Shown: positions 2,133 to 64,000, counted from the first letter of the stretch. The stretch is 64,000 nucleotides of DNA from Kiritimatiellia bacterium (GCA_040767085.1 JAXGPF010000008.1:128001-192000); one strand, 5' to 3'. Notes: generated from the sequence alone by a model not told the origin. Made by a program: numbers and translations.

Positions 2133-2246
2133 ACAACTATTGGGATGAGGGAAAACATGGTGTTCAGTGTGCGGCGGAAGTCGTTCCTTCGAACCCCCTA
2201 AAACCGTAAACCTGAAAAATTTCAAAACGTTAGTTTTAAAAGATGC

Positions 2247-3272
2247 TCAGGCATCTTCCTTGCGGGCCGCCGGCTTGTCTTCGCCGGAGATGGATTCACG
2301 CATGCTGGTGTCGGCGATCAGGTTTTGCATGCGTAGATAATCCATGACGCCCAGTTTGCCTTCGCGCAGGGCTTGCGCCAGGGCGCGCGGCACTTCCGCC
2401 TGGGCTTCCACCACCTTGGCCTGCATCTCCTGCACCCGCGCGCGCATTTCCTGCTCGGCGGCGGTGGCCATGGCGCGGCGGCCTTCCGCCTCGGCCTGGC
2501 GCAGTTTCTTGTCGGCTTCGGCTCTTTCCGTTTCCAGCAAGGCGCCGACGTTGGCAGCGTCCGCTATGCCGGCGACGCTGATATCGGCGATGTCAATCGA
2601 GACGATTTCGAAGGCCGTCTGCGCGTCCAGGCCGCTTTCCAGCACCTTGCGGCTGATGAAGTCGGGGTTTTCCAGCACGTTTTTATAAGAAGCCGCCGAG
2701 CCAATGGCGCTGACGATCCCCTGGCCGACGCGGGCGATGATCGTTTCCTCCGTGGCGCCCCCGACGACTTTCTCGATGTTCATGCGCACGGTGACACGCA
2801 CTTTGACCAGCAACCGGATGCCGTCCTTGGCCACGGCGTCGAGCATGCCGGTGGTGCTTTTGTTGGGGTCGGGGCATTCAATGACTTTGGGGTAGACGCT
2901 GGTGCGCACGGCTTCAAACACATCGCGCCCGGCCAGGTCAATCGCGGCGGCGCGCTGGAAAGTGAGGGAGATATCCGCCTTGTCGGCGGCGATCAGGGCG
3001 TTGACCACGCTGCGGACATCGCCGCCGGCCAGGTAATGGGCTTCCAGCGGATCGGTTTCAATGTTCAAACCGGCCTTGACCAGTTGGATGCGGGTATCCA
3101 CGATCATGGCCGGCGGCACGCGCCGCAGTTTCATCCCGATCAGCGACGCCAGCGATACATGCGCGCCGGACATCAGCGCGCGGATATAGACGCCGATGAA
3201 GTAGAAGAAAATCGAGCCGAGAATAATAACCAGTATGGCGGCGAGAATCAGAATCAGCGTGATGAATGACAT
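2247..3272 (-). CDS. floA: Flotillin-like protein FloA (YqfA/UPF0365)
   Basis: [54 protein letters not shown] motifs; AGGAG RBS before ATG 3272. Confidence 0.93.
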
Positions 3273-3469
3273 GGCGGCGCGCTCCTGTATTTGGTTGGGG
3301 ATGGCGTCCGGCGGATTGCCGTTAATTGCGGCGCGGTGCCATCCAGCATCGAAGGGCAATATATGCGCCGGCCGGCATGAAGGCAAGCGAAAATTGCCGG
3401 ACGATGCGCGGATTGGAACAGAAGGAGAAATAACGGATCAGGGGGAGGAGCAGGGATTTGAACAGAAAG

Positions 3470-3514
3470 CCCACCTTGTTCCGCCCTTGTGCTGCCTTAT
3501 GTTTAAAATTCCGG
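3470..3514 (-). repeat. 45-bp dispersed intergenic repeat, copy 1
   Basis: Reverse complement matches 20822-20866 at 42/45 positions. Confidence 0.85.
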
Positions 3515-3533
3515 GTTTCATGCGCCGCGGGAG

Positions 3534-4382
3534 TCAAGGCTGCGCCGGCCCGGCGGCACGGACAAATTGCCGGCGGAAGGCGGCCGGGCTGATTCCTTGC
3601 AGCTTGCGGAACCGGTAGGAAAAATAATAGCGGTCGCAGAAGCCGGCGGCTTCGGCTACCTGCTTGATGCTGAGCTTGGAAAAATGCAACAGGAGACAGG
3701 CGCGGTCAATGCGCCGGATTTGGCCGTAAGTTTGCGGCGGCGCGCCCACCGCCTGGCGGAAGCAACGGCAGAAGGCGGTAGGATGCATCCGCATGCGTTC
3801 CGCCAGCGCGCGGTTGGTTGCCGGGCGCCAATCCTGGCTTTCCCACCAGTTGAGCAGTTCCCACAGGCGCGGCGGGTAGCAGTCGGCCGGTGGCAACGAT
3901 GCGTCCGGCAAGGACGCGAGCGCGTGCCAGCATAGATTCAAGGCCGTGGCGGCGCAGCGCGCCTGGGTGGCGGGATCGGCGGCCGCGCCTTGCCGGGGAT
4001 ATATGCCGCGCATGGCCGCCAGCAGCGGCGCTGCCGCCGGGAATTGATGGACCTGGTTTTGGACATGCGCGAAGGGCAGGCCCACGGTAAAATGTGTGAA
4101 GTAATGCTCTACCGTTTGCGACAGTTCCTGGGAAAGCGTGGTATTGGGCGCCACCAGCATAAAATGGTCCGGCTCCAGGTTGTGGCATCGACCGTCTTCG
4201 GCGCGCAAACAGGCGCCGGGCCGGTCGTTCCAATAAAGCCGCCAATAAGGGCTGCGCACATTCTGAGTGCGCCATTGCCGCGGTTGCAAGTTCAGGTGTG
4301 CACAGCATAGCAGTGTCAACTGGGGCGTGTGGCCGATGTTGACGTGCCCCCAGGTCAGCGGCTTGACCTGATTTGTGTTCAT
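3534..4382 (-). CDS. AraC-family transcriptional regulator
   Basis: N-terminal cupin-like region; C-terminal SIKQVAEAAGFCDRYYFSYRFRKLQGISPAAFR. Confidence 0.93.
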   Translation of the reverse strand: MNTNQVKPLTWGHVNIGHTPQLTLLCCAHLNLQPRQWRTQNVRSPYWRLYWNDRPGACLRAEDGRCHNLEPDHFMLVAPNTTLSQELSQTVEHYFTHFTVGLPFAHVQNQVHQFPAAAPLLAAMRGIYPRQGAAADPATQARCAATALNLCWHALASLPDASLPPADCYPPRLWELLNWWESQDWRPATNRALAERMRMHPTAFCRCFRQAVGAPPQTYGQIRRIDRACLLLHFSKLSIKQVAEAAGFCDRYYFSYRFRKLQGISPAAFRRQFVRAAGPAQP

Positions 4383-4584
4383 GCTAATTTTACGAACAAC
4401 TTGGCTAATTCCGTTAATTGCATAAATTCTGGATGCATGATAACTTGATTGTAGAAAAAATCAAGTATGCAGCGTTCGGCGGAACGGTTTGGTTCGTATG
4501 TTTTATCCGGCATGATGTTATTTTGACGTATATGCTTCCGCCAGCAAGTTGATAATATTTCTGTTGATGTAAGGACGGTTTTGC

Positions 4585-7470
4585 ATGATCACCCTGGAAA
4601 CTAAAACCTTCGCCTGGCACATTGACGAGGCCGGATGCACCCGCGCTTTCTCCGCGGCGGATTCCGGCCAAAACCTCCTGGATGATGCCGCAGTGCCGGC
4701 GGCGTTCTGCCGGCTGGTTCAGGATGAACGCGAAATCATGCCGGCGGGCGTGGTCTTCCGGGGCGGGCAGCTGATCGTGGATTTCCCGGGCGCCGCCCCG
4801 GTCCGTCTGGACGTGGAAATCCGGGAACATTACCTGGTGTTGCGCGTGGCAGCGGCGCCGGACGGCTACGACCGCCTGGTGTTCCTGGATGTGCCGCTGC
4901 GCCCGGGCGCGGCCGCCGCCGATGAGTTCGTCGCCTGCGCCGTGTCCCTGAACCTGCGGACGCGTGTGGACGAACTGCCCGGCCCGCAATCCCGCCTGGC
5001 CGCCCGGTGTTACCGACGGTTCGGCCTGACGGGCGCGGCGGTGGCGGTGGCGGCCGCGCCATTCCATCAATTGCGGGAGATTTTAAAAACGGTGGTCAAC
5101 GCCGCGCCGGATTTGCCCAAATCGCCCCGGGGCGGCCCGTGGGCCATGGATGCCCGGGAAAATTACACTTCCTATCTTTTCGGCGTGGCGACGGAAGAAA
5201 CGGTGGACGAGTGGATTGGGTTGTGCCGCGATTTCGGGATGGATCAACTGCATTTCTGCGGGCAGCAGGGATTCCGTTACGGCGATTACCTGCCGGACCC
5301 CAAAACTTTTCCCCATGGCATGGCCGGCGCCCGCAAGGTTGTTGACCGCCTCCACCAGGCCGGGATCATGGCGGGACTGCATACCCTGTCGTTCTCGATC
5401 CGCCAGAACACGCCCTATGTCGCGCCCGTGCCGGACAAGCGCCTGGCCAGGGAGGCGTCCTACACGCTGGCGGCGCCGCTGACCGCGGCGGATGGCGCCG
5501 TGCTGCTGGCGGAAAACACCGCCGGCCTGCCCCAAGAAATCAGTTATCATATCCGGCGCAGCATGACCTTGCAGATTGACGATGAGTTGATTGAGTTCAC
5601 CGGGGTCAATGACCGGCCGCCTTTCGGCGTCGGCGGATGCCGGCGCGGCGCCTGGGGCACGCGCGCGGCGCCGCATGCCCGGGGCGCGGTTGCGCATCAT
5701 CTCAAGGCCTGCTGGGGGATGTTCGCTCCCGATGGCGAGTCCACCCTCTTCAGTGAAATCGCCGGCAATATCGCCCGCACGGTGAATGAATGCGGGTTTG
5801 ACATGATTTATCTCGATGGGCTGGACGGCATCCACATCCTGGGCGGCGAGGAAGCCCGCTGGCATTATGGCGGCCGGTTTGCCTTCGAAGTTTTCAAGCG
5901 CTTGAACCGGCCGGTGATCATGGAGATGGCGGCGTTCCTGCACCACCTCTGGTTTTTACGGTCGCGCATGGGCGCCTGGGATCATCCCATCCGCGGATAC
6001 ACTCCGTTTTTGGATCATCATGTGCGGTCCAATGCGCAATGCGCGCGCATCTTTCTGCCGGCGCATCTGGGCTGGTGGGCGCCGCGCACAGCCGCGGCTT
6101 CGAACATGACCACCACCGATATCGAGAACATGGGCGGCCTGGCGTGCAAAAACGAGACCACCCATGTCGAAGATGTCGAATACTTGTGCGCCAAGGCCCT
6201 GGAGTCGGGCGCAGGCTTTTCGCTGCAGGGGCTCTCCCCGCAGGCAGTGCGGAATACGCCGCACTTGCAGCGCCTGGCGCCGGTTTGCAAGCGCTACGCG
6301 GCCGCGCGCGCCGCTGCCGTCCCTGTAGCGGCGCCACTGTGTGGCGCAAAAGCCGCACCCCGTGCAGCGACGACAGATCATTCCCCGCTGGTAGTCCGGC
6401 CGCCGTCCGCTGGCCGGGGCGCATCTTGCGTAAAACACCTCGTCACCGGTCTGGACGACAGTTCCGACGCCTGGCGGGTGCATTCCGATGCCGCGCGGCC
6501 GGCGAAAATCCGCGTGGAAGCGCTCTGGTCGGTTGCGCCATTCGAGGACGAGCGCGGCATAGTTGTTGCCGATTGCGCGCATCCAATGGAATTCAGCCCG
6601 GGATGGGAACTCGTCCGTATCCTTAACAGCGGCAAAAAATATTCCTGCCCGGGCGCGGCGCCCGGTTTGCGGATCTGGCTGGAAGCGGCGCCGGCGAACG
6701 CGTCCGGCGACGGCCGCGCCCGCGCGTGTTTAAAAGCCGAGCGTCAAAGCGGCAGCCGGTTTCCCGTTTCCTCGCCGGCCGACCGCCTTTCGCTGCTCGA
6801 TCATGGCGAACGCATTTACGAAGCAGGCCCGGCATCCTGGGGTTGGCTGGGCAAGCGGTTCACGTCGGAACTGGATTTGTCCAAATGTCCGGCTTTGGGA
6901 TTGTGGGTGCAGGGCGACGGCAGCGATGCGGTCTTGAACGTCCAGCTTGCCGGGCTGGAGCGCACCCAGGCGCTGGAAGATCATTACGTGCCGCTGGATT
7001 TTACCGGGTGGCGTTATGTGGAGCTGGTGGAGCCGGAGGCGGAGCGGTTTGAAAATTACAGATGGCCTTACGGACGGTGCGTGTATGACATTTACCGCGC
7101 CACAATTCAGTACGCCCAGGTGGCCGGCATCAAGCTGTGGCTTAACCACGTGCCGGCTAAAGGCGGTACTACCTGCCTGATCTCGCAGATTCGCGCGCTG
7201 CCGCTGGTCCGGACCAAACTCAACCAGCCGGTTTTGACCATTAACGGGCGCGAGCTTACCTTGCCTTTTGCCTTGGCCGCCGGCGACTGGGTGGAAATTG
7301 GTGCGGATGGAATGGCGGCCGCATTTGCGCCCGATGGCCGGGAAATTCAGTCCGCGCCGTTGCCGGGCGGGACGATCCGGATGAAGGCGGGCGCCAATGA
7401 ACTGGCTTTCAAGGCTGACGCGCTTGCAGGCCGATGCCGGGCGCGGGTGACGGTGATATGCAATTCTTAG
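4585..7470 (+). CDS. Large hypothetical protein, glycoside hydrolase-like (clan D GH27/36-like TIM barrel) with C-terminal CBM-like domain
   Basis: FPHGMAGARKVVDRLHQAGIMAGLH and GFDMIYLDG resemble clan-D motifs; LGLWVQGDGS..LNVQL..LDFTGWRYV is CBM-like; divergent from AraC. Confidence 0.55.
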   Translation: MITLETKTFAWHIDEAGCTRAFSAADSGQNLLDDAAVPAAFCRLVQDEREIMPAGVVFRGGQLIVDFPGAAPVRLDVEIREHYLVLRVAAAPDGYDRLVFLDVPLRPGAAAADEFVACAVSLNLRTRVDELPGPQSRLAARCYRRFGLTGAAVAVAAAPFHQLREILKTVVNAAPDLPKSPRGGPWAMDARENYTSYLFGVATEETVDEWIGLCRDFGMDQLHFCGQQGFRYGDYLPDPKTFPHGMAGARKVVDRLHQAGIMAGLHTLSFSIRQNTPYVAPVPDKRLAREASYTLAAPLTAADGAVLLAENTAGLPQEISYHIRRSMTLQIDDELIEFTGVNDRPPFGVGGCRRGAWGTRAAPHARGAVAHHLKACWGMFAPDGESTLFSEIAGNIARTVNECGFDMIYLDGLDGIHILGGEEARWHYGGRFAFEVFKRLNRPVIMEMAAFLHHLWFLRSRMGAWDHPIRGYTPFLDHHVRSNAQCARIFLPAHLGWWAPRTAAASNMTTTDIENMGGLACKNETTHVEDVEYLCAKALESGAGFSLQGLSPQAVRNTPHLQRLAPVCKRYAAARAAAVPVAAPLCGAKAAPRAATTDHSPLVVRPPSAGRGASCVKHLVTGLDDSSDAWRVHSDAARPAKIRVEALWSVAPFEDERGIVVADCAHPMEFSPGWELVRILNSGKKYSCPGAAPGLRIWLEAAPANASGDGRARACLKAERQSGSRFPVSSPADRLSLLDHGERIYEAGPASWGWLGKRFTSELDLSKCPALGLWVQGDGSDAVLNVQLAGLERTQALEDHYVPLDFTGWRYVELVEPEAERFENYRWPYGRCVYDIYRATIQYAQVAGIKLWLNHVPAKGGTTCLISQIRALPLVRTKLNQPVLTINGRELTLPFALAAGDWVEIGADGMAAAFAPDGREIQSAPLPGGTIRMKAGANELAFKADALAGRCRARVTVICNS

Positions 7471-55208: not shown

Positions 55209-55877
55209 ATGCATGGCTTAAGCAACGATTGCTGGAACCGCATCGGCGCGGCGGGGGATCAATCCTGCCCGGAACTGCGGCGGCATGTGCATTGCCGCAA
55301 TTGTCCGGTGTTTGCCAACGCCGCCGGTCAATTGCTGGAGCGCGATCTGCCGGATGGTTACGCCCGCGAGTGGGCCGGCCGGCTGGCGGAGCCGGTCCGT
55401 TCCGCCGCGGCGGCCGATGACAGTTTGACCGTGTTTCAGGTCGGCGCGGAGTGGCTGGCGCTGCCCTCCGCCGTGTTCCGGGAGGTGGCGGCGGTGCAGA
55501 CAGTGCGCGTGATTCCGCACCGTTCCAACGCGGTGCTGCTGGGCCTGGTGGCTGTACGGGGCGCGCTTCATTTATGCTTTTCCATGGCGGCTTTGCTGGG
55601 CCTCGCGCCGGCGGACACCCCCCCCGCGGATGCGGCCCGTTCCGTTATTGCGCCCCGGCATTGCCTGCTGGACGACCGCGGGCAGGGCTGGGTGTTTCAG
55701 GCGGATGCGGTGCTGGGCCTGCGCCGGTTCCAGGCCGCGGACCTGCGGCCGCCCCCCGCCACGGTGGCGCATGCCTTGCCGCAATTCAGCCGGGGTTTGC
55801 TTGACCATGCCGGTCATGCGGTCGGCGTGCTGGATGCGGAACTGTTGTTCAAGGCGCTGGCCGGAGTAAAGGCATGA
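55209..55877 (+). CDS. wspD: CheW-like scaffold, WspD type
   Basis: N-terminal DCWNRIG..GD.SCPEL..HVHCRNC characteristic of WspD; CheW core. Confidence 0.85.
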   Translation: MHGLSNDCWNRIGAAGDQSCPELRRHVHCRNCPVFANAAGQLLERDLPDGYAREWAGRLAEPVRSAAAADDSLTVFQVGAEWLALPSAVFREVAAVQTVRVIPHRSNAVLLGLVAVRGALHLCFSMAALLGLAPADTPPADAARSVIAPRHCLLDDRGQGWVFQADAVLGLRRFQAADLRPPPATVAHALPQFSRGLLDHAGHAVGVLDAELLFKALAGVKA

Positions 55878-58165
55878 AGGACTTGAGCGGATTTTCCATG
55901 CTGGACTTGTTCCGCCAGGAGGCGGAAGCCCAGAATGAAATTTTGAATGCCGGGCTCCTGGCGCTGGAACAGGGCGGCGCGGCGCCGGAAAAACTGGAAG
56001 CCATGATGCGCGCGGCGCATTCGCTCAAGGGGGCCGCCCGCATTGTCGGACTCGATGCCGCCGTCAAGGTGGCGCATGCGCTGGAAGATTGTTTTGTCGC
56101 CGCGCAGAAAAAAATGCTCCGGATCACCCCGCCGGACGCCGACCTGCTGCTGCGGGCGGTGGATTTGCTGGGGGCCATTGCCGCCGCTCCGGAAGATCCC
56201 GCGGCGCCCTGGCGGGCCGGCGATGCGGCCCCGGTGGCGCAAGTGTTGCGGCAGTTGGATCAGGTTCTGCATGGCGCCGCCGCAGCCGGCTCCGCCGCCG
56301 CAGTCCAACCCGCCGCCATCGCGAAGACGCCGGCCGCCGGGGATGCGCCCCCGCCCGCCGACACCCCGCAGCCTGCCGACACCCAGTCCGCCACCGGGCA
56401 ACCCGTTCCGGCGGCGCCGGCCGCCGGGCCGGATCGCACGGTGCGCATAGCGGCGGAAAGTCTCAGCCGCCTGGTGGAACTGGCGGGCGAGGCGTTGGTG
56501 CGGACGCGCTGGCATACGCCGTATGCCGGCGCCTTGACCGGGTTAAAAAATGCGCTCGCGGCTTTGGCCCGGCAGACGGATCAACTGGCCAGCCGGTCCC
56601 AGCAGCATGCGGATATTCAGCCGTCGGAGTGTGCCGACCTGCTGCGCCAGATTGGTGAAATCCGCAAGCAAGTCGGACAGTTGCAGGCGGATTTCGACTC
56701 CAGCGCGCATCGCTCGGCGGATTTAACCGAACGGATTTACCAGGAAGTTGTCGCCAGCCGCATGCGGCCGCTGGCCGACGGCGTGCAGGGCCTGCCGCGG
56801 ATGGTGCGCGATCTGGCGCGGCAACTGGGCAAGCAGGTCCAGTTCGAAATCACCGGCCGGGATACCGGCGTGGACCGCGAAATCCTGGCGCGCCTGGAGG
56901 CTCCGGTGACGCATTTGCTGCGCAATGCCCTGGACCACGGACTGGAAACTCCGGCGGAGCGCCAGGCGGCCGGCAAGCCGCCCGCCGGCCATTTGCAATT
57001 GGAAGCCCGGCACCATGCCGGGCAGTTATGGGTCACGGTTGCCGATGACGGCCGCGGCATGAACATCGAGGGCATCCGGCGCAAGGCGGCCGCCCGCGGC
57101 TTGAGCGCGCCGGAGACCCTGGCGCGCATGTCGGATGAAGAAGTGCTGGAGTTCCTGTTTTTGCCGGGTTTTTCCACGGCGGAAGCCGTTTCGGAAATCT
57201 CGGGCCGGGGCGTGGGGCTGGACGTGGTGCAGAGCCTGGCCCGGGAGCTGGGCGGCGCCGCGCGCCTGGAAAACCGGCCTGGGCGCGGCGCGGCTGTGCA
57301 TCTGCATCTGCCCATCACTCTGTCAGTGCTGCGCGCGCTGCTGGTGGAAATAGGCGGCGCGCCCTACGCGCTGCCGCTGACGCGCGTCGCCCGCCTGGTT
57401 CAGCCAGCGCCCGGCGATTGGCGCATGCTGGAAGGACGGCGTTACCTGGCGCTGGAAGGGCGGGATATCGGGGTGGTGGATGCCGCGGAAGTTTTGGGGC
57501 TGCCGCCGCCTGCCGCTTGTGAGGCCGGCCCGGTGGTAATCCTGGGCGGAGGCGTTGAGACTTACGGATTAGCGGTGGAGCGGCTGCTGGGCGAATGCAA
57601 GCTGGTGGTGCGGCGGCTGGATGCGCGGCTGGGCAAAGTGCGCGATGTCAATGCCGCGGCGTTGCTGGATGATGGCACGCCGGCGTTGATCCTGGACGCG
57701 GATGATTTGACGCGTTCCATCGAAACCATGCTGGGCCGCGGCGGATTGAAACATTCCGTCCGGCCGGCGGCCGGCGCGTCCCAGCAGCGTCAACAGGCGG
57801 TTTTAGTGGCGGATGATTCCATCACCGTGCGCGAGATCGAACGGCGCCTCCTGGAAAACCGCGGCTACCATGTGGATACGGCGGTGGACGGCATGGAGGC
57901 CTGGAACCTTCTACGGGAAAACCAGTACGATTTGCTGGTGACGGATGTGGACATGCCGCGCCTGGGCGGGATCGAGCTGGTGCAGAACCTGCGCCGGGAT
58001 GCCCGGCTGCGCGAGTTGCCGGTGGTGGTGGTTTCCTACAAGGACCAGGAAGATGACCGGCGGCGCGGCATGGAAGCCGGCGCCGATTATTACCTGACTA
58101 AGAGCAGCTTTCAGGATGAAACCTTTATCCGGGCCGTCGCGGATTTGCTGGGGGGGACTGACTGA
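55874..58165 (+). CDS. wspE: Hybrid CheA-like kinase with receiver, WspE type
   Basis: Hpt AHSLKGAAR; HLLRNALDHG; SGRGVGLDVV; CheW; REC (VADDS, TDVDMP). Confidence 0.9.
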   Translation: MKDLSGFSMLDLFRQEAEAQNEILNAGLLALEQGGAAPEKLEAMMRAAHSLKGAARIVGLDAAVKVAHALEDCFVAAQKKMLRITPPDADLLLRAVDLLGAIAAAPEDPAAPWRAGDAAPVAQVLRQLDQVLHGAAAAGSAAAVQPAAIAKTPAAGDAPPPADTPQPADTQSATGQPVPAAPAAGPDRTVRIAAESLSRLVELAGEALVRTRWHTPYAGALTGLKNALAALARQTDQLASRSQQHADIQPSECADLLRQIGEIRKQVGQLQADFDSSAHRSADLTERIYQEVVASRMRPLADGVQGLPRMVRDLARQLGKQVQFEITGRDTGVDREILARLEAPVTHLLRNALDHGLETPAERQAAGKPPAGHLQLEARHHAGQLWVTVADDGRGMNIEGIRRKAAARGLSAPETLARMSDEEVLEFLFLPGFSTAEAVSEISGRGVGLDVVQSLARELGGAARLENRPGRGAAVHLHLPITLSVLRALLVEIGGAPYALPLTRVARLVQPAPGDWRMLEGRRYLALEGRDIGVVDAAEVLGLPPPAACEAGPVVILGGGVETYGLAVERLLGECKLVVRRLDARLGKVRDVNAAALLDDGTPALILDADDLTRSIETMLGRGGLKHSVRPAAGASQQRQQAVLVADDSITVREIERRLLENRGYHVDTAVDGMEAWNLLRENQYDLLVTDVDMPRLGGIELVQNLRRDARLRELPVVVVSYKDQEDDRRRGMEAGADYYLTKSSFQDETFIRAVADLLGGTD

Positions 58166-59184
58166 TGCGGGTGGCCATCGTCAACGACATGCGGATGGCG
58201 GTGGAGGCGCTGCGCCGGATCGTGGCGGCCTGCCCCGGGCATTCGGTGGCCTGGGTGGCCCGCGACGGCGCGGAAGCGGTGGCCAACTGCGCGGCCGACA
58301 CGCCGGATGTGATCCTGATGGATTTGATCATGCCGGTGATGAACGGGGTGGAGGCGACGCGGGAAATCATGCGGCATTCGCCTTGCGCCATCCTGGTGGT
58401 GACGGCCACAGTGGACGGCAATATCGCCCTGGTTTTCGAAGCGATGGGCCATGGCGCGTTGGACGCCGTGAATACCCCCGTGCTCGGGCCGGACGGGCGG
58501 CTGGAAGGCGCCGGGGAACTGCAACGCAAGCTGGACGTCATCAGCCGCCTGCTCGGCCGTGAATCCGCCGCTCTGCCGCCGCCGGCCGCGCCGGCCGCGC
58601 CGCGCGCGGATAAAATGCCGCTGGTATTGTTTGGCGCTTCCACCGGCGGTCCGGCGGCCATGGCCGATATTTTAAGCGGATGGCCATCCGGCATCGCCGC
58701 CGCGCTGGTGGCGGTGCAGCATGTGGATGCCCAGTTCGCCCCGGACCTGGCCGCCTGGTTGAATCGGCGCGGGCGTTTGCGGGTGGCGGTGGCGGAGCCG
58801 GGCCGCCCGCCGCCCGCCGGCATGCTCAGTCTCGCCTGCACCAACGATCACATGGTGTTCGACCCGGCCGGCGCCCTGCAGTATGTGCGCGAGCCGCAGG
58901 ATTGTTTTTACCGCCCGTCGGTGGATGTGTTTTTCCGGAGCGCGGCGCGCCATTGTCCGGCCGCCGGCGTGGCCGTTTTATTGACCGGCATGGGCCGCGA
59001 CGGCGGGGCGGGCCTGCTGGAGCTGCGCCGTAGCGGCTGGCGCACCATCGCGCAGGACGAGCGGAGCTCCGTCGTTTACGGCATGCCCCGCGCCGCCGCG
59101 GAATTGGGCGCCGCGGAGGAAATCCGCCCGCTGGCGGAAATCGCCGGCGCCGCGGTCCAGGCGCTGCAACGGGGGAACCGGTAA
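58165..59184 (+). CDS. wspF: REC-CheB methylesterase, WspF type
   Basis: MRVAIVND; GASTGG, QHVD, TGMG.DG triad. Confidence 0.9.
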   Translation: MRVAIVNDMRMAVEALRRIVAACPGHSVAWVARDGAEAVANCAADTPDVILMDLIMPVMNGVEATREIMRHSPCAILVVTATVDGNIALVFEAMGHGALDAVNTPVLGPDGRLEGAGELQRKLDVISRLLGRESAALPPPAAPAAPRADKMPLVLFGASTGGPAAMADILSGWPSGIAAALVAVQHVDAQFAPDLAAWLNRRGRLRVAVAEPGRPPPAGMLSLACTNDHMVFDPAGALQYVREPQDCFYRPSVDVFFRSAARHCPAAGVAVLLTGMGRDGGAGLLELRRSGWRTIAQDERSSVVYGMPRAAAELGAAEEIRPLAEIAGAAVQALQRGNR

Positions 59185-59215
59185 CGCTGCCGCGTGGGCT
59201 TATCAAAGGGAAAAC

Positions 59216-60421
59216 ATGCAAACTGACAATCAAAACACCGTCCGGCCGCCGCCGCATGGCATCCGGGTCTTCCTGGTGGACGACCAGGCGATGATCGGCG
59301 AGGCCGTGCGCCGCATGCTCGAGCCGGAATCCGATATTACCTTCCAGTATTGCGCCGATCCGGCCGCCGCCGTCAGGCAGGCCGAGGCCTTTGCGCCAAC
59401 CGTGATCCTGCAGGACCTGGTGATGCCGGAGATTGACGGATTGACCCTGGTGAAATTCTACCGCGCGCATCCCGCGACGCGCGATGTGCCCCTGATCGTT
59501 TTATCAACCAAGGAGGAGCCGGCGACCAAGGCCGAGGCCTTCGCCCGGGGCGCCCACGATTACCTGGTGAAACTGCCCGACCGCGTGGAATTGGTTGCGC
59601 GCATCCGCCACCATTCCGGCGGCTACATCAACCTGTTGCAGCGGAACGAAGCTTATCGCGCCCTGGTGGCCAGCCAGGAAGCGCTGGCCGCCGAACTGGC
59701 GGAAGCGGCCGCTTACGTGCAATCGCTCCTGCCGCCGCCGCTGAACGAAGGCCTGGTGCGGACGGCCTGGCGTTTCATTCCCTCGGCCCAGCTTGGCGGC
59801 GACGCCTTCGGGTACCATTGGCTGGATGACGACCACTTGAGCTTGTACCTCCTGGATGTTTGCGGGCATGGGGTGGGCGCGGCCCTGCTGTCCATCTCGG
59901 CTATGAACGTCCTGCGTTCCCAGGCATTGCCGCACACGGATTTTCATGATCCGGGACAGACCTTGTCGTCCCTGAACGAAGCCTTCCTGATGGAAAAACA
60001 CAATAACATGTATTTCACCATCTGGTACGGGGTGTATGACCGGGTGGCCGGCGCGCTCCGCTATGCCAGCGCCGGCCACCCGCCGGCGCTTCTCATGTCC
60101 CCGTCCGCCGGCGCCCCGGCGGTCAGGGAACTGCGCACGCGCGGCATGGTGCTGGGCGGGCTGGCCGGCGCATCGTACTCCAGCGCCGCCTGCGATGTGC
60201 CGCCGGGAAGTTCCATTTTCCTGATGAGCGACGGCGTGTATGAAGTCAGCCGGCCCGACGGCACCATGTGGTCGTTTCCCGAGTTCGTGCAATGCCTGAC
60301 CGAGGCCGCCGCCGCCGGCCGGCCGGAAATCGCCGAGGTGGAGCGCCGTGTCCGCGCCTGGCGCGGCCCGGGGGCGCTGGAGGATGATTTTTCGATTGTG
60401 AAGTTCGCCTTCCCGTGTTAA
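59216..60421 (+). CDS. WspR-like receiver fused to SpoIIE/PP2C phosphatase
   Basis: VDDQAMIGEAVRR...QDLVMP...DYLVKLPD; GGD, DVCGHG, AGHPP, SDG, DD; no GGDEF. Confidence 0.92.
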   Translation: MQTDNQNTVRPPPHGIRVFLVDDQAMIGEAVRRMLEPESDITFQYCADPAAAVRQAEAFAPTVILQDLVMPEIDGLTLVKFYRAHPATRDVPLIVLSTKEEPATKAEAFARGAHDYLVKLPDRVELVARIRHHSGGYINLLQRNEAYRALVASQEALAAELAEAAAYVQSLLPPPLNEGLVRTAWRFIPSAQLGGDAFGYHWLDDDHLSLYLLDVCGHGVGAALLSISAMNVLRSQALPHTDFHDPGQTLSSLNEAFLMEKHNNMYFTIWYGVYDRVAGALRYASAGHPPALLMSPSAGAPAVRELRTRGMVLGGLAGASYSSAACDVPPGSSIFLMSDGVYEVSRPDGTMWSFPEFVQCLTEAAAAGRPEIAEVERRVRAWRGPGALEDDFSIVKFAFPC

Positions 60422-60489
60422 ATTGCCGCATGTCCAGTAATAATACGCAGCCTGCCATTAACTCAAACTCAAACAAAACGAGGTGCACA

Positions 60490-60813
60490 ATGCAAATTTC
60501 CTCAAACGTCCGCGATGACAATACGATCGTTTCGATTGCCGGCCGCCTGGATTCCGGGACGTCCGCGGAAGCGGAAAAACAGTTGCTGGCCCTGGTGGAA
60601 CGCGGCGCCCGCAAGATCGTGCTGGATTGCGCCGGTCTGGAGTATGTCAGCAGCGCCGGGCTGCGGGTGATGCTGGCGGTTGCCAAGCGCATGGGCGGCT
60701 TGCAGGGCCGTTTGACGCTGGCGGCGCCCGCGGCGCAAGTGCGCGAAATTCTGGATATCGCCGGTTTCGGCGACATTCTCCCTGTTTTTGCCACGGTGGA
60801 AGAGGCGCTTTGA
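60490..60813 (+). CDS. STAS anti-sigma factor antagonist
   Basis: GRLD...LEYVSSAGLR with phospho-acceptor Ser. Confidence 0.92.
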   Translation: MQISSNVRDDNTIVSIAGRLDSGTSAEAEKQLLALVERGARKIVLDCAGLEYVSSAGLRVMLAVAKRMGGLQGRLTLAAPAAQVREILDIAGFGDILPVFATVEEAL

Positions 60814-61262
60814 TGTCTGCTGAACTGCGGCTTGCCGTGGATAATGATTTGCCGGCCATCAGCCGCTTGTGCGCCGCCTGCACCGAGTTCATGGAGCAGC
60901 GCGGGGTTTCCGCAGCCGGCATCTATGCCGTCAACCTGGCCCTGGAGGAAATGGTTACCAACATCGTCAAGTATGGTTATGACGACTTGGAACGCCATGC
61001 CATCCAGGTTTCCCTGCGCGTGGAAGGCGCAATGGCGACGCTTGTGCTGGAGGACGACGGGCATGCGTTCAACCCCCTGGACGTGCCCGCGCCGGATGTC
61101 CGGCAGTCGCTCCAGGAACGGCCGATCGGCGGATTGGGCATTCATTTGACCCGGAAAATGGCGGCTTCCATGGAATATCGCCGCGATGGCGGCCGCAACA
61201 TCCTGACGATTCATGTCCGGGCTAATCCAGCGCCCGCGGCGGCCGGTGGGGTACATGTTTAA
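60813..61262 (+). CDS. RsbW-like anti-sigma factor / Ser kinase
   Basis: LEEMVTNIVKYG, EDDG, GGLGIHL. Confidence 0.92.
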   Translation: MSAELRLAVDNDLPAISRLCAACTEFMEQRGVSAAGIYAVNLALEEMVTNIVKYGYDDLERHAIQVSLRVEGAMATLVLEDDGHAFNPLDVPAPDVRQSLQERPIGGLGIHLTRKMAASMEYRRDGGRNILTIHVRANPAPAAAGGVHV

Positions 61263-62238
61263 TTCCGGGCATAATCATCGCTGGCTGGGGCTTGGTCTGG
61301 CGGGCTTGCTGGCCTGCCGCCTGGCGGCAGCGCAGCCGGATGCCCCGGCGATTTTCATTCCGCAGTGGAAGCACCAGGCCCAGTTTGCCGGTTTCTATGC
61401 CGCCATGGAGCAGGGTTTTTTCCAGCAGCGCGGCCTGGAAGTCAAAATGCTGGGCGGCGGCCCGGCGCAGCCGGCCATTCCCATGCTGGCCGAAGGCCGG
61501 GCCGAGTTCGGCACGATGTTTTTGGCCGATGCCATCCGGGCCCGCGCGCGCGGGACGCCGCTGGTTAACCTGGCCCAGTTGGTGCAGCGTTCGTCCCTGA
61601 TGCTGGTGGCCCGCCAATCGTCCGGCATCCGTTCGCCCGGCGATCTGGCCGGCCGGAAAGTCAGCTTGTGGTCCGATTTCCGTGTGCAACCGGAAGCATT
61701 ATTCCGCCAGTTTGGCGTGGCGCCGCAAATCATCAACCAGGGCGCCACCATCAACTTGTTTCTGCGCGGCGGCGTGGATGCGGCTTCCGCCATGTGGTAT
61801 AACGAGTACCATCTTCTGCTCAATGCCGGGCTGGATGCAGGGGAATTGACGGTGTTTTTTTATGACGATTTCGGGCTGAATTTTCCGGAAGACGGCATTT
61901 ATTGCCTGGCGCAGACCTGGCAGGAGCGCCCGGACCGGTGCCGCGCCTTCGTTCAGGCCGCCCTGGAAGGCTGGCGTTACGCCTTTGCCCACCCGGACCA
62001 GGTCCTGGACCTGGTCATGCGCCAGATGGCCGCCGGCGATTACGCCGCCAACCGCGCCCACCAGCGCTGGATGCTGGGGCGCATGCGCGATCTCATCATG
62101 CCCGCAGGCAGTCCGGCGGCCCTGGGCGAACTGCGGCAGGCTGACTTTCAGCGGGTGGCGGACGCTCTGCAGGCGCACGGCATGATCCAGACGCCACCGG
62201 CCTGGACGGATTTTTATGCAAACTGCCTCACACCATAA
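61255..62238 (+). CDS. NMT1/THI5-like periplasmic substrate-binding protein
   Basis: [12 protein letters not shown]...GF....GL.V; SGI..P.DL.G.KV; F..A...GW.YA. Confidence 0.85.
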
Positions 62239-64000
62239 TCGGAATAAGTACTGCGGCTTGGCGTTCAAGCTCAGCGTCTGGATCCTTGCCGGCGCGGCGG
62301 CAGTGTTTCTGACGGTGTTCTTCTATTATTTTTTCAATACGCGCCGCATGGCCCTGCGGGATATCGAGGAAAATATACGGCATCTGACCCTGGCCACGGT
62401 CAGCCGGGTGGAAACGGTTTTTCAATCCACGGAACGCATTCCCGGTTACATGGCGGCCCTGCTGGAGCAGCCGGACTTGCGGTTGGCGGCATTGCCCGGG
62501 CTGATCAGCAATGCTGTCGCCGCCAATCCGGTGGTGTACGGTTGCGCGGTAGCCTTTGAACCTCACGCCGCCGACACGGCCCGCCTGTATTACGCGCCTT
62601 ACGTTTGCCGCAGTCCGGCGGGACTGGAAATGCTGTGGCTGGGCGGGACCAACTACCACTATTTCGACTGGGACTGGTACCAGATTCCCCGCGAGCTGGG
62701 CCAGCCTATCTGGAGCGAGCCGTATTACGATGAATCCGGCGGGCAGATGCTGATGACCACTTATGCGGCGCCATTTTATCTCCGGCCGGCGGGGCAGCGG
62801 CGGCTGGGCGGCGTGGTCACGGCGGATATCACCCTCGAACGCCTGGTGGAAATGGTCGGGCAGGTGTCGGTTTTCTCGTCCGGGTACGCTTTCCTGATTT
62901 CCCGGAACGGCGTGTTCCTGGCGCATCCCGACCAGTCGCTGGTCATGCGCGAAAGCATCTTCAGCCTGGCGGATGAGGCGGGCGATCCGGAATTGCGCCG
63001 GGTGGGCCGGGCGATGTTGCGGGGCGGCAGCGGCATGGCGCGCATCAGTTACCCGCGCCTGGCGCGGCGCCGGGCGCGGATGTACTATGCCCCCCTGGCA
63101 TCGCTGGGCGGGTCGCTGGGGGTGGTGGTGCCGGAAAACGAACTGTACGCCGGGGTGTACGCTCTGGGCCGGCGCGCCGTCCTGTTCGCCGCCGCCGGAT
63201 TGGCGGGGCTGGCCCTGATGGTGGCCTGCATCGCCCGCGCGATTGCGCGCCCGGTGACCGCGCTGGCCCAGAGCGCCGCGGAAGTGGCCGCCGGCCGGTT
63301 GAACGCCGCCGTGCCGGAAGTGCGTTCGCGCGATGAAGTGGGCGTGCTCGCCCGTGCTTTCCGGGGCATGACGGCCAGCCTGGCGGCCCTGGTCCGGCAA
63401 GTGCAGGCCGCCGCCGCCCGCCTGGTGGAGACTGCCGCCGGCATGACCGATAACCTGCGCCGGCAGGAAAACACGGTGGCGGAATTCGGCGCTTCCACGT
63501 CGGAGATCGCGGCGGCCGTCAAGGAAATTTCGGTTACCGGCCAGGAATTGGCGCATACCATGCAGGAATTGCAGGATGCCGCCGCCGCGGCCGCCGCCCT
63601 GGCGGACAGCGGGCGCAGCGGCCTGGGCGCCATGGACGGTTCGATGCGGCGTCTCGAAGCGGCGGCCGGATCCCTTGCCGCGCGCCTGGCGGCCATCAAT
63701 GCCAAGACCGCCAGCATCAACAACATGGTGGCCATTATCAACCAGGTGGCGGAACAGACCAACCTCCTGTCGCTGAATGCCGCGATTGAGGCGGAGAAGG
63801 CCGGCGAATACGGCCGGGGGTTCGCCGTGGTGGCCCGCGAAATCCGACGCCTGGCCGACCAGACGGACGTCGCCGGGACTGATATCCGGCGGACGGTGCG
63901 GGAAATGCAGGCTTCCGTTTCAACCGGCGTCATGGAAGTGGATAAATTCAACAACGAAGTGGGGGCCGGCTTGCATACCGTCAACGGGGTGGTGGCGCAG
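62216..64000 (+). CDS. Methyl-accepting chemotaxis protein, WspA-like, with Cache and HAMP domains (runs off the window)
   Basis: Read manually: [24 protein letters not shown] (TM), WY..P....W.EPY.D (dCache), SRDEVG.LARAF (HAMP), [36 protein letters not shown]. Confidence 0.9.

Follow-up and report, generated by a model that had tools for sequence, protein, structure and literature searches.

A Wsp-type chemosensory locus probably coupled to a PP2C/STAS/kinase switch in a Kiritimatiellia bacterium

The Wsp pathway of Pseudomonas is the standard textbook example of a chemotaxis-like array that serves a purpose other than motility. The locus described here, at positions 55,209 to 64,000 of a 64,000-nucleotide stretch of DNA from a Kiritimatiellia bacterium (hereafter the window; C27:128001-192000 in our contig numbering), belongs to a system that shares with it a methyl-accepting chemotaxis protein (MCP), two CheW proteins, one of them long and WspD-like, a CheR carrying tetratricopeptide repeats (TPR), a hybrid CheA with its own receiver (REC) domain, and CheB; relatives of the operon also keep the Pseudomonas gene order, with the output regulator last. 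The differences lie in the output domain, which is PP2C and not GGDEF, in the dCache receptors, in the spread of the operon over two contigs and in the host, which belongs to the Planctomycetes-Verrucomicrobia-Chlamydiae (PVC) group. According to the available portions of a 2021 survey, Wsp is restricted to Beta- and Gammaproteobacteria and has no outputs besides WspR and WspH (PMC8552884). For cheR-TPR clusters, of the alternative cellular function (ACF) class, the regulators catalogued include fusions of REC with a family 2C Ser/Thr phosphatase, a mononucleotidyl cyclase, a histidine kinase, GGDEF and others; these architectures are said to be listed already by Wuichet and Zhulin 2010, in their Table S1 (Munoz-Martinez et al. 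2012; PMC3447774). In the accessible part of that paper, the entry on the REC-phosphatase is a catalogue item only, naming no substrate, partner or function.

Switches built from phosphatase, STAS protein and kinase are represented by RsbU/RsbV/RsbW of Bacillus subtilis, which shares the PP2C, STAS and kinase triad with the present locus, and by RssB-RssC of P. aeruginosa, which shares the REC domain, coiled-coil linker and PP2C domain. From both of these the locus differs in that its input is a chemoreceptor array, not a two-component kinase or a stressosome, and in that it has no cognate sigma gene. CrsR of Shewanella oneidensis and HsbR of P. aeruginosa are reportedly fusions of REC, PP2C and kinase, and HsbR is said to be fed by HptB. 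The accessible text on the S. oneidensis Che1 locus with CrsR/CrsA describes a chemosensory locus that carries a partner switch acting on RpoS (PMC9855816). Together with P. aeruginosa HsbR/HsbA, it shares with the present system a chemosensory link, a REC-PP2C regulator and a STAS antagonist, as far as the excerpts of both papers extend (PMC9855816; PMC6482189). Che1 is, in the same portion of the text, of the F7 type, and CrsR holds an anti-sigma factor domain within the same protein, with RpoS as the client (PMC9855816); the Kiritimatiellia locus has a separate kinase protein and Che proteins of the Wsp/ACF class, and no RpoS-type sigma factor was found in the genome. A literature search returned no paper on a Wsp-type or ACF pathway acting through PP2C, STAS and kinase.

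From its genes, domains, conserved residues, synteny and relationship to WspR, we propose that the locus is the kinase-and-output half of the organism's sole chemosensory system, that this system is of the Wsp type (ACF class), and that it drives a PP2C/STAS/kinase switch whose best candidate client is a GPP34-like protein. We would put the probability of this reading, in which the phosphotransfer and binding steps are proposed ones, at roughly 0.7.

A WspR-type receiver joined to a phosphatase

The output regulator is a protein of 401 residues encoded on the + strand at 59216..60421, in which Pfam, a search of PDB sequences, an AlphaFold2 (AF2) model and Foldseek identify a WspR-like REC domain and stalk fused to a SpoIIE-family PP2C domain. 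With its limits taken from the model, the REC domain covers residues 16-122 (59261..59581); it is followed by a stalk modelled as a single long helix (residues 123-170; 59582..59725), which aligns with the WspR stalk as far as residue 158, and by the PP2C catalytic domain (residues 182-399; 59759..60412; SpoIIE E 1.9e-39). Searched against all PDB sequences, residues 12-158 matched WspR of P. aeruginosa (3bre) with E 2.7e-55 and 191 bits, and WspR of P. syringae (3i5a) with E 7.8e-55; the next receiver was PleD, at E 1.2e-13. This comparison, which had been set in advance, bears out the likeness of REC and stalk to WspR noted in the original prediction. Identity to P. aeruginosa WspR over receiver and stalk was about 65% (95 of 147 aligned positions, by hand count).

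An AF2 model built on 14 orthologues had a mean predicted local distance difference test (pLDDT) score of 83.1 and consisted of a receiver, an unbroken helix and a PP2C fold. Ranked by Foldseek, P. aeruginosa RssB came first (3f7a, E 4e-27) and WspR second. Across the 14 orthologues the REC residues D22 and D23 (acidic pocket), D67, T98 and K119 were invariant, D67 (59414-59416, +) being the phospho-acceptor position, as were D196, D214, H218, G219, D339, D390 and D391 of the PP2C domain. The conserved acidic residues of the latter are presumably metal-binding positions, and the output domain is a complete PP2C, as had been read from the sequence alone. No GGDEF domain, and with it no cyclic di-GMP output, was found on the regulator, whose C-terminal domain is SpoIIE/PP2C; the lone GGDEF match of the genome lies elsewhere.

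Relatives of the REC-PP2C protein number at least 8000 in the database at E 1e-10 or better. The 120 best-scoring ones listed were 59-86% identical over their full length, the named ones coming from metagenome-assembled genomes of several phyla, and the best named homologues from such genomes labelled Kiritimatiellia or Verrucomicrobiota. A pattern scan over one genome per species confirmed at least 513 encoding stretches, the best 80 of which were examined further, with neighbouring genes called by tblastn using the window proteins. Of the 73 loci for which 1.5 kb or more of upstream sequence was available, 44 had CheB directly upstream on the same strand, and of the 54 for which 7 kb or more was available, 24 had the full CheW-CheR-CheW-CheA-CheB series ahead of the phosphatase gene. 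A che gene of some kind was nearby at 61 of the 80 loci. None was seen at six loci whose flanks extended for 5 kb or more in both directions, and a Gemmata-like group had its che genes 3' of the phosphatase gene. Hosts included Verrucomicrobiota, Planctomycetota, environmental Chlamydiales, Lentisphaerae, Acidobacteria, deltaproteobacterial lineages and Methylococcaceae. Because wspABCDEF followed by REC-PP2C recurs in relatives of many phyla, we regard the system as a pathway of the Wsp type, serving something other than motility, in which the output has been exchanged. The phosphatase-output Wsp type is widespread and catalogued, and no experimental study of it was found in the literature.

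A search with the WspR-type receiver-stalk segment gave 432 cluster representatives at E 1e-30 or better, and outputs were scanned in 77 of the best 150 representatives (at least 300 residues, with one matched stretch), plus three with two matched stretches. Among the 77 there were 15 with SpoIIE/PP2C, 13 with GGDEF, 16 with a class III cyclase, 16 with HisKA/HATPase, three with HD-GYP and one with PAS. The remaining 13 had no output domain C-terminal to the receiver at E 1e-5, one of them matching a cyclase in part, on the N-terminal side of the receiver; with the threshold relaxed, some of these resembled divergent SpoIIE or GAF domains, and three matched nothing. This spread agrees with the catalogue of ACF clusters, to judge from the accessible part of the latter (PMC3447774). 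It also fits a proposal, taken here from a partial text, in which coiled-coil linkers control PPM phosphatases, receiver, PPM, histidine kinase and GGDEF modules are exchangeable, and the linker-dimerisation mechanism is put forward as general (PMC12143880). In a tree of 78 WspR-type receiver-stalk segments and two outgroups, 44 of 77 inner branches were open and no branch had the outgroup on one side; the PP2C label changed 11 times, with at least three changes forced. The tree is poorly resolved and therefore gives no ground for deciding between a single origin and many origins for the phosphatase fusion.

Three of the sequences carrying a WspR-type receiver and stalk (P0153, P0169 and P0210) continue for about 200-230 residues with no Pfam match at E 0.1. 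Such C-terminal regions may, judged by sequence, be undescribed output domains of Wsp-type pathways.

The operon and the chemosensory set of the genome

Pfam and NCBIfam place eight + strand genes between 55209 and the end of the window, separated in gene order by -4, -1, +31, +68, -1, -8 and -23 nucleotides. Five of the seven junctions overlap and all genes share a single strand, in agreement with the operon-like run of mostly overlapping stop and start codons originally described, and every domain of the predicted series wspD-wspE-wspF-[REC-PP2C]-STAS-kinase-binding protein-MCP was found by Pfam. Upstream of cheW lies a 193-nucleotide spacer, beyond which is an unrelated PP-loop ATPase gene. 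At the other end, the receptor gene extends 231 nucleotides past the window to give a full receptor of 671 residues and is followed by a phosphoribosyltransferase gene and then by oxidoreductase genes. Consensus scans counted one promoter-like site, against 1.6 expected from shuffled sequence, and eight terminator-like sites, against 9.7; in the downstream DNA there was likewise no excess over shuffled sequence, so these scans carry no information on the limits of the operon. Metatranscriptome contigs from one study matched pieces of the operon exactly and bridged the cheA/cheB, cheB/phosphatase and phosphatase/STAS junctions. They are at most a weak hint of joint expression, since DNA carry-over is possible and a contig over two genes is not a single transcript; the parts of the operon without cover in these contigs are uninformative.

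The operon opens with a wspD-like cheW with an N-terminal extension (55209..55877, +; Pfam CheW E 4e-13), its start set by alignment with 17 orthologues. It continues with a wspE-like hybrid CheA of 763 residues, Hpt-HATPase_c-CheW-REC by Pfam (55874..58165, +), and with a wspF-like CheB, REC-CheB_methylest by Pfam (58165..59184, +); the latter passes NCBIfam model NF009206 (PRK12555; 422.6 bits, cut-off 342) and does not reach the PRK00742 cut-off. The last gene encodes a chemoreceptor with PDC/dCache, HAMP and MCPsignal domains by Pfam (62216..64000 and on past the window, +). In the whole genome (4.08 Mb in 28 contigs, estimated to be 95% complete) there are one CheA, two CheW proteins (three CheW-domain matches including CheA), one CheR and two MCP signalling domains, and the wspE-like protein is the sole CheA-type CheW-domain match. 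The missing parts of the set are on contig C25, in a small operon for a second dCache MCP, a CheW of 171 residues and a TPR-tailed CheR (TPR_16). Together the two operons make up a full wspA-B-C plus wspD-E-F set. It had been suggested that wspB and wspC might lie beyond position 64,000; neither cheW nor cheR is found 3' of the receptor, and the wspA/B/C-like genes are those on C25. The ACF/Wsp features present are the hybrid CheA with a C-terminal receiver, the two CheW paralogues and the CheR fused to TPR.

The chemosensory system is the organism's only one and is not flagellar. FHIPEP (FlhA) gave no match in the 95%-complete genome, an absence that is not proof. A role in motility was considered and rejected, no FlhA having been found; type IV pili lay outside the search. 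For a genome of 4 Mb the set of regulators is very small: two matches to the sigma-70 family, a single GGDEF match and a single CheA, with no flagellar export gene.

The order wspA-B-C-D-E-F-then-output is not found in this genome, in which the genes are split between C25 and C27 and the receptor stands after the output. Among 40 related genomes, the REC-PP2C gene was found in 20 of 24 from the same family and in one of 16 from other families of the class. Sixteen same-family loci could be compared: 11 had the canonical order, with one or two receptors first, three showed only CheB and then REC-PP2C, and two, both from the same genus, had the split order of the window. The split therefore represents a recent, genus-level rearrangement. 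The permuted order of the original prediction, with the receptor after the output, is accordingly real and confined to the genus.

Two further features accompany the chemosensory genes. The N-terminus of the WspD-like CheW carries a four-cysteine motif (C8, C20, C29 and C32; 55230..55304, +) recognised in the orthologue alignment as C-x11-C-x8-C-x2-C, each cysteine being at least 90% conserved over 18 orthologues from several phyla. Conservation of this kind suggests that the coupling protein has a site for a metal or for redox chemistry; the available portions of the Wsp survey mention neither cysteine nor zinc (PMC8552884). Between the kinase and dCache receptor genes lies a gene for an NMT1/SsuA-family periplasmic binding protein with a signal or lipoprotein leader (61255 (or 61213)..62238, +; Pfam NMT1 E 3.1e-39), with no transporter genes alongside. 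Among the loci compared it adjoins the operon in the same genus only, and it may be a co-receptor.

The STAS protein, its probable kinase and a candidate client

Directly after the phosphatase gene comes a gene for a single-domain STAS protein (60490..60813, +; Pfam STAS E 6e-21), which passes the anti-sigma-antagonist superfamily model TIGR00377 with 79.7 bits against a cut-off of 53.45. Alignment with SpoIIAA predicts S55 (60652-60654, +) as the phospho-serine. It is aligned with the serine that differs between SpoIIAA entries 1th8 and 1tid, which we take to be the phosphorylation site, and it is invariant in 18 sequences comprising orthologues and paralogues. The next gene encodes an RsbW-like serine kinase of the HATPase_c_2 family (60813..61262, +; Pfam E 4.6e-24; 85.3 bits, cut-off 27.4), the genome's only strong match of that family. 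N-, G1- and G2-box-like motifs were recognised in it by eye. The kinase falls under the equivalog cut-offs of RsbW (NF003144, E 4.6e-8) and SpoIIAB (TIGR01925, E 1.1e-5), and it matched no PDB sequence at E 0.001. When 41 related genomes were searched, REC-PP2C and kinase were both found in 21, the phosphatase alone in one, the kinase alone in three and neither in 16, relatives that are not independent of one another.

The genome holds eight STAS matches. An extra single-domain STAS gene is found at C27:194228-194581, 2 kb past the receptor and behind the phosphoribosyltransferase and oxidoreductase genes, and likewise at the same-genus locus L085. A GAF-SpoIIE phosphatase (C25:196542-198017) is preceded by a 212-residue STAS-like protein, and a HAMP-SpoIIE phosphatase of 896 residues is encoded at C28:98078-100768. 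These two phosphatases would be alternative inputs to the same STAS/kinase network, in which, as we picture it, a single kinase and several STAS proteins take input from three phosphatases, of which the chemosensory array feeds one.

According to the original prediction, receptor signalling would control STAS phosphorylation and hence an alternative sigma factor or another STAS client, and it is the second possibility that fits better. No sigma gene was found in the operon or in the 16 kb downstream. Over the whole genome there were two Sigma70_r2 matches, one RpoD-like and one of the extracytoplasmic function (ECF) kind, and no SigB/SigF-type or RpoS-type sigma factor; extra sigma region-4 matches were short helix-turn-helix hits without region 2. 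The switch thus probably has no dedicated sigma factor as its output. By analogy with what has been proposed for Chlamydia, it may control the primary sigma factor.

Another client was suggested by sister genera. In five sister genomes whose wsp-like operon has no STAS-kinase tail, the best orthologues of the STAS protein and kinase are close neighbours at another site, separated by a single gene, which belongs to the GPP34/GOLPH3 family (Pfam E ~1e-48 in two genomes, tblastn in three). The kinase and its STAS protein have evidently moved next to the phosphatase in the genus studied here. The window's genome has a GPP34 homologue of 216 residues on contig C2 (C2:188213-188863; 68% identical; Pfam GPP34 E 5.1e-53). 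Among 401 genomes of the phylum, 43 had GPP34, with STAS beside it at 9 of 30 loci. In metagenomes, STAS was within 1 kb at 52 of 80 GPP34 loci (32 of the 50 with at least 600 nucleotides on both sides), and the kinase was present at 15 of 80. Three metagenome contigs (L194, L200 and L208), plus a fourth that ends early (L206), carry the series kinase-STAS-GPP34-REC-[REC-PP2C] on one strand (~2180-5630); the PP2C of contigs of this type is 52-57% identical to that of the window, and its receiver is not of the WspR type. GPP34 was also directly upstream of a wsp-like operon in one related genome (G018, locus L090) and at four metagenome loci. Clustering of the GPP34 gene neighbours returned, besides STAS and kinase, only antisense frames of GPP34. 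At C2:187758-189242 the window's genome has a STAS gene (+), the GPP34-like gene (+) and a convergent STAS gene (-), with no kinase, as against STAS-GPP34-kinase in the sister genera.

Complex prediction was carried out in three runs with the window STAS protein and the C2 GPP34 protein, each with its own alignment. The scores were 0.83, 0.83 and 0.85, and the best of three controls reached 0.06; a mark of 0.83 is reached by 116 of 157 solved complexes and by 2 of 215 mismatched pairs, counts that are rough when own alignments are used. At least 98% of contacts were common to the runs, and partner pLDDT was at least 82. On the STAS side the predicted interface comprises residues 21-23, 52-56 (with S55), 58-69 and 86-97; on the GPP34 side it comprises 41-57, 149-156 and 186-195, including the conserved D47, D49, P151 and D191. 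Solved GPP34 relatives are GOLPH3 and Vps74 chains (E 2.7e-14 to 1.8e-13), none of them named as a STAS complex, and it is therefore unlikely that the score reflects a remembered structure. As a prediction, the model supports binding of GPP34 by the STAS protein through its phospho-serine face.

Eukaryotic GPP34 relatives act at membranes and on glycosyltransferases. By Pfam and by its matches to solved chains, the candidate client shares the GPP34 family with eukaryotic GOLPH3/Vps74; unlike these, it is bacterial and cytoplasmic. We tentatively suggest, at less than even odds, that the client is not a sigma factor and that unphosphorylated STAS would bind this bacterial GOLPH3/GPP34 homologue through the phospho-serine face, the chemoreceptors thereby controlling GPP34. 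In the single paper found on bacterial GPP34 the term 'STAS' occurs 0 times (PMC11706023), and a literature search for GPP34 with STAS or anti-sigma found no paper.

Alternatives, the proposed pathway and its meaning

Classical anti-sigma control would have the RsbW-like kinase hold the RpoD-like or the lone ECF-like sigma factor, which would be freed when dephosphorylated STAS binds the kinase. The order of STAS gene and kinase gene is that of rsbV-rsbW, and the kinase does match the anti-sigma B and F models NF003144 and TIGR01925, weakly and far under their cut-offs. Precedents come from the PVC group, in which a Chlamydia Rsb network has been proposed to act on the primary sigma factor (PMC4552016), and from the REC-PP2C-kinase systems of Shewanella and P. 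aeruginosa, which act on RpoS (PMC9855816; PMC6482189), all as given in the accessible portions of these papers. The sigma gene that such a scheme calls for is absent from the operon and the 16 kb downstream, the genome offers only its two Sigma70_r2 matches and no SigB/SigF-type protein, and sister genera have GPP34, not a sigma gene, between STAS and kinase; we consider this alternative unlikely. An adaptor role for the regulator, acting by phosphorylation to deliver a client to a protease in the manner of RssB and not mainly as a phosphatase, would suit the structural ranking in which 3f7a comes first and the match to the NCBIfam Pseudomonas RssB model (E 5.2e-29). It would also suit the available part of one paper, which describes P. 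aeruginosa RssB as having an active phosphatase domain and an adaptor function that needs the STAS protein RssC (PMC12143880). The RssB model gives 101.5 bits against a cut-off of 700, however. No RpoS-type sigma factor was found in the genome, and the invariance of all conserved PP2C acidic residues across phyla argues for catalysis; an adaptor function seems very improbable.

The tail of STAS protein, kinase, binding protein and receptor might also have been joined to the operon by rearrangement and be functionally unrelated to it, in which case the phosphatase would act on another STAS paralogue or on a non-STAS protein. Among the 16 same-family loci the tail is found only in this genus, and elsewhere at 8 of 64 loci; the genome also has several STAS paralogues and two other SpoIIE phosphatases. 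Weighing on the other side, neighbouring genes share a strand and either overlap or follow closely on one another, 21 of the 22 related genomes with the phosphatase also have the kinase, and in metagenome operons kinase, STAS and GPP34 occur together with an orthologous PP2C. Moreover, the eight loci elsewhere belong to independent lineages that likewise place a kinase or STAS gene directly after REC-PP2C, within 1.5 kb downstream, and one or the other is similarly near the phosphatase in G016, which is outside the genus, and in G001 and G002. We judge an unrelated tail to be improbable.

Several observations nevertheless count against the coupling of a Wsp-type array to this switch and to GPP34. 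STAS and kinase are not adjacent to REC-PP2C at 56 of the 64 loci from other lineages, nor at 14 same-family loci outside the genus, and their adjacency here is therefore a recent rearrangement. The pairings are ambiguous, since the genome encodes three SpoIIE phosphatases and no fewer than five small STAS proteins, and the three operon junctions spanned by RNA-library contigs are open to the DNA carry-over mentioned above. A complete relative (G009) has REC-PP2C with no GPP34 and no kinase match to the query used. REC-PP2C and kinase occur with no GPP34 match in G011 and G019, so GPP34 is not an obligatory part. Of the phylum's 30 GPP34 loci, 21 have no STAS gene within 1.5 kb, and the STAS protein beside GPP34 in the window's own genome is a different paralogue, 47% identical to that of the window; a passing complex score can also be obtained with a close paralogue of the true partner. 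The support as a whole comes from sequence, synteny and models.

In the pathway that we propose for the Wsp-type system and its switch, two dCache receptors, that of the operon and the one encoded on C25 with CheW and CheR-TPR, would signal to the hybrid CheA, the operon receptor probably being served by the adjacent periplasmic binding protein. The two CheW proteins would couple the receptors to CheA, and CheR and CheB would give adaptation. CheA would phosphorylate D67 of REC-PP2C, and by analogy with WspR, RssB and RsbU this may order or dimerise the stalk and so switch the phosphatase on. The RsbW-like kinase would phosphorylate S55 of the adjacent STAS protein and the PP2C domain would take the phosphate off, leaving unphosphorylated STAS to engage its partners, for which the GPP34/GOLPH3-like protein on C2 is the best candidate client.

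Across many phyla the same receiver-stalk module is joined to outputs of several kinds: phosphatase, cyclase, histidine kinase, HD-GYP and domains as yet unnamed. In the present locus the phosphatase branch adjoins its probable substrate and kinase, so that the output step can be tested with four small soluble proteins. If the GPP34 link is true, partner switching would gain a client other than a sigma factor, the phosphatase branch of Wsp-type pathways would have an output independent of sigma factors, and a bacterial relative of GOLPH3 would receive its first cellular role, together with a regulator.

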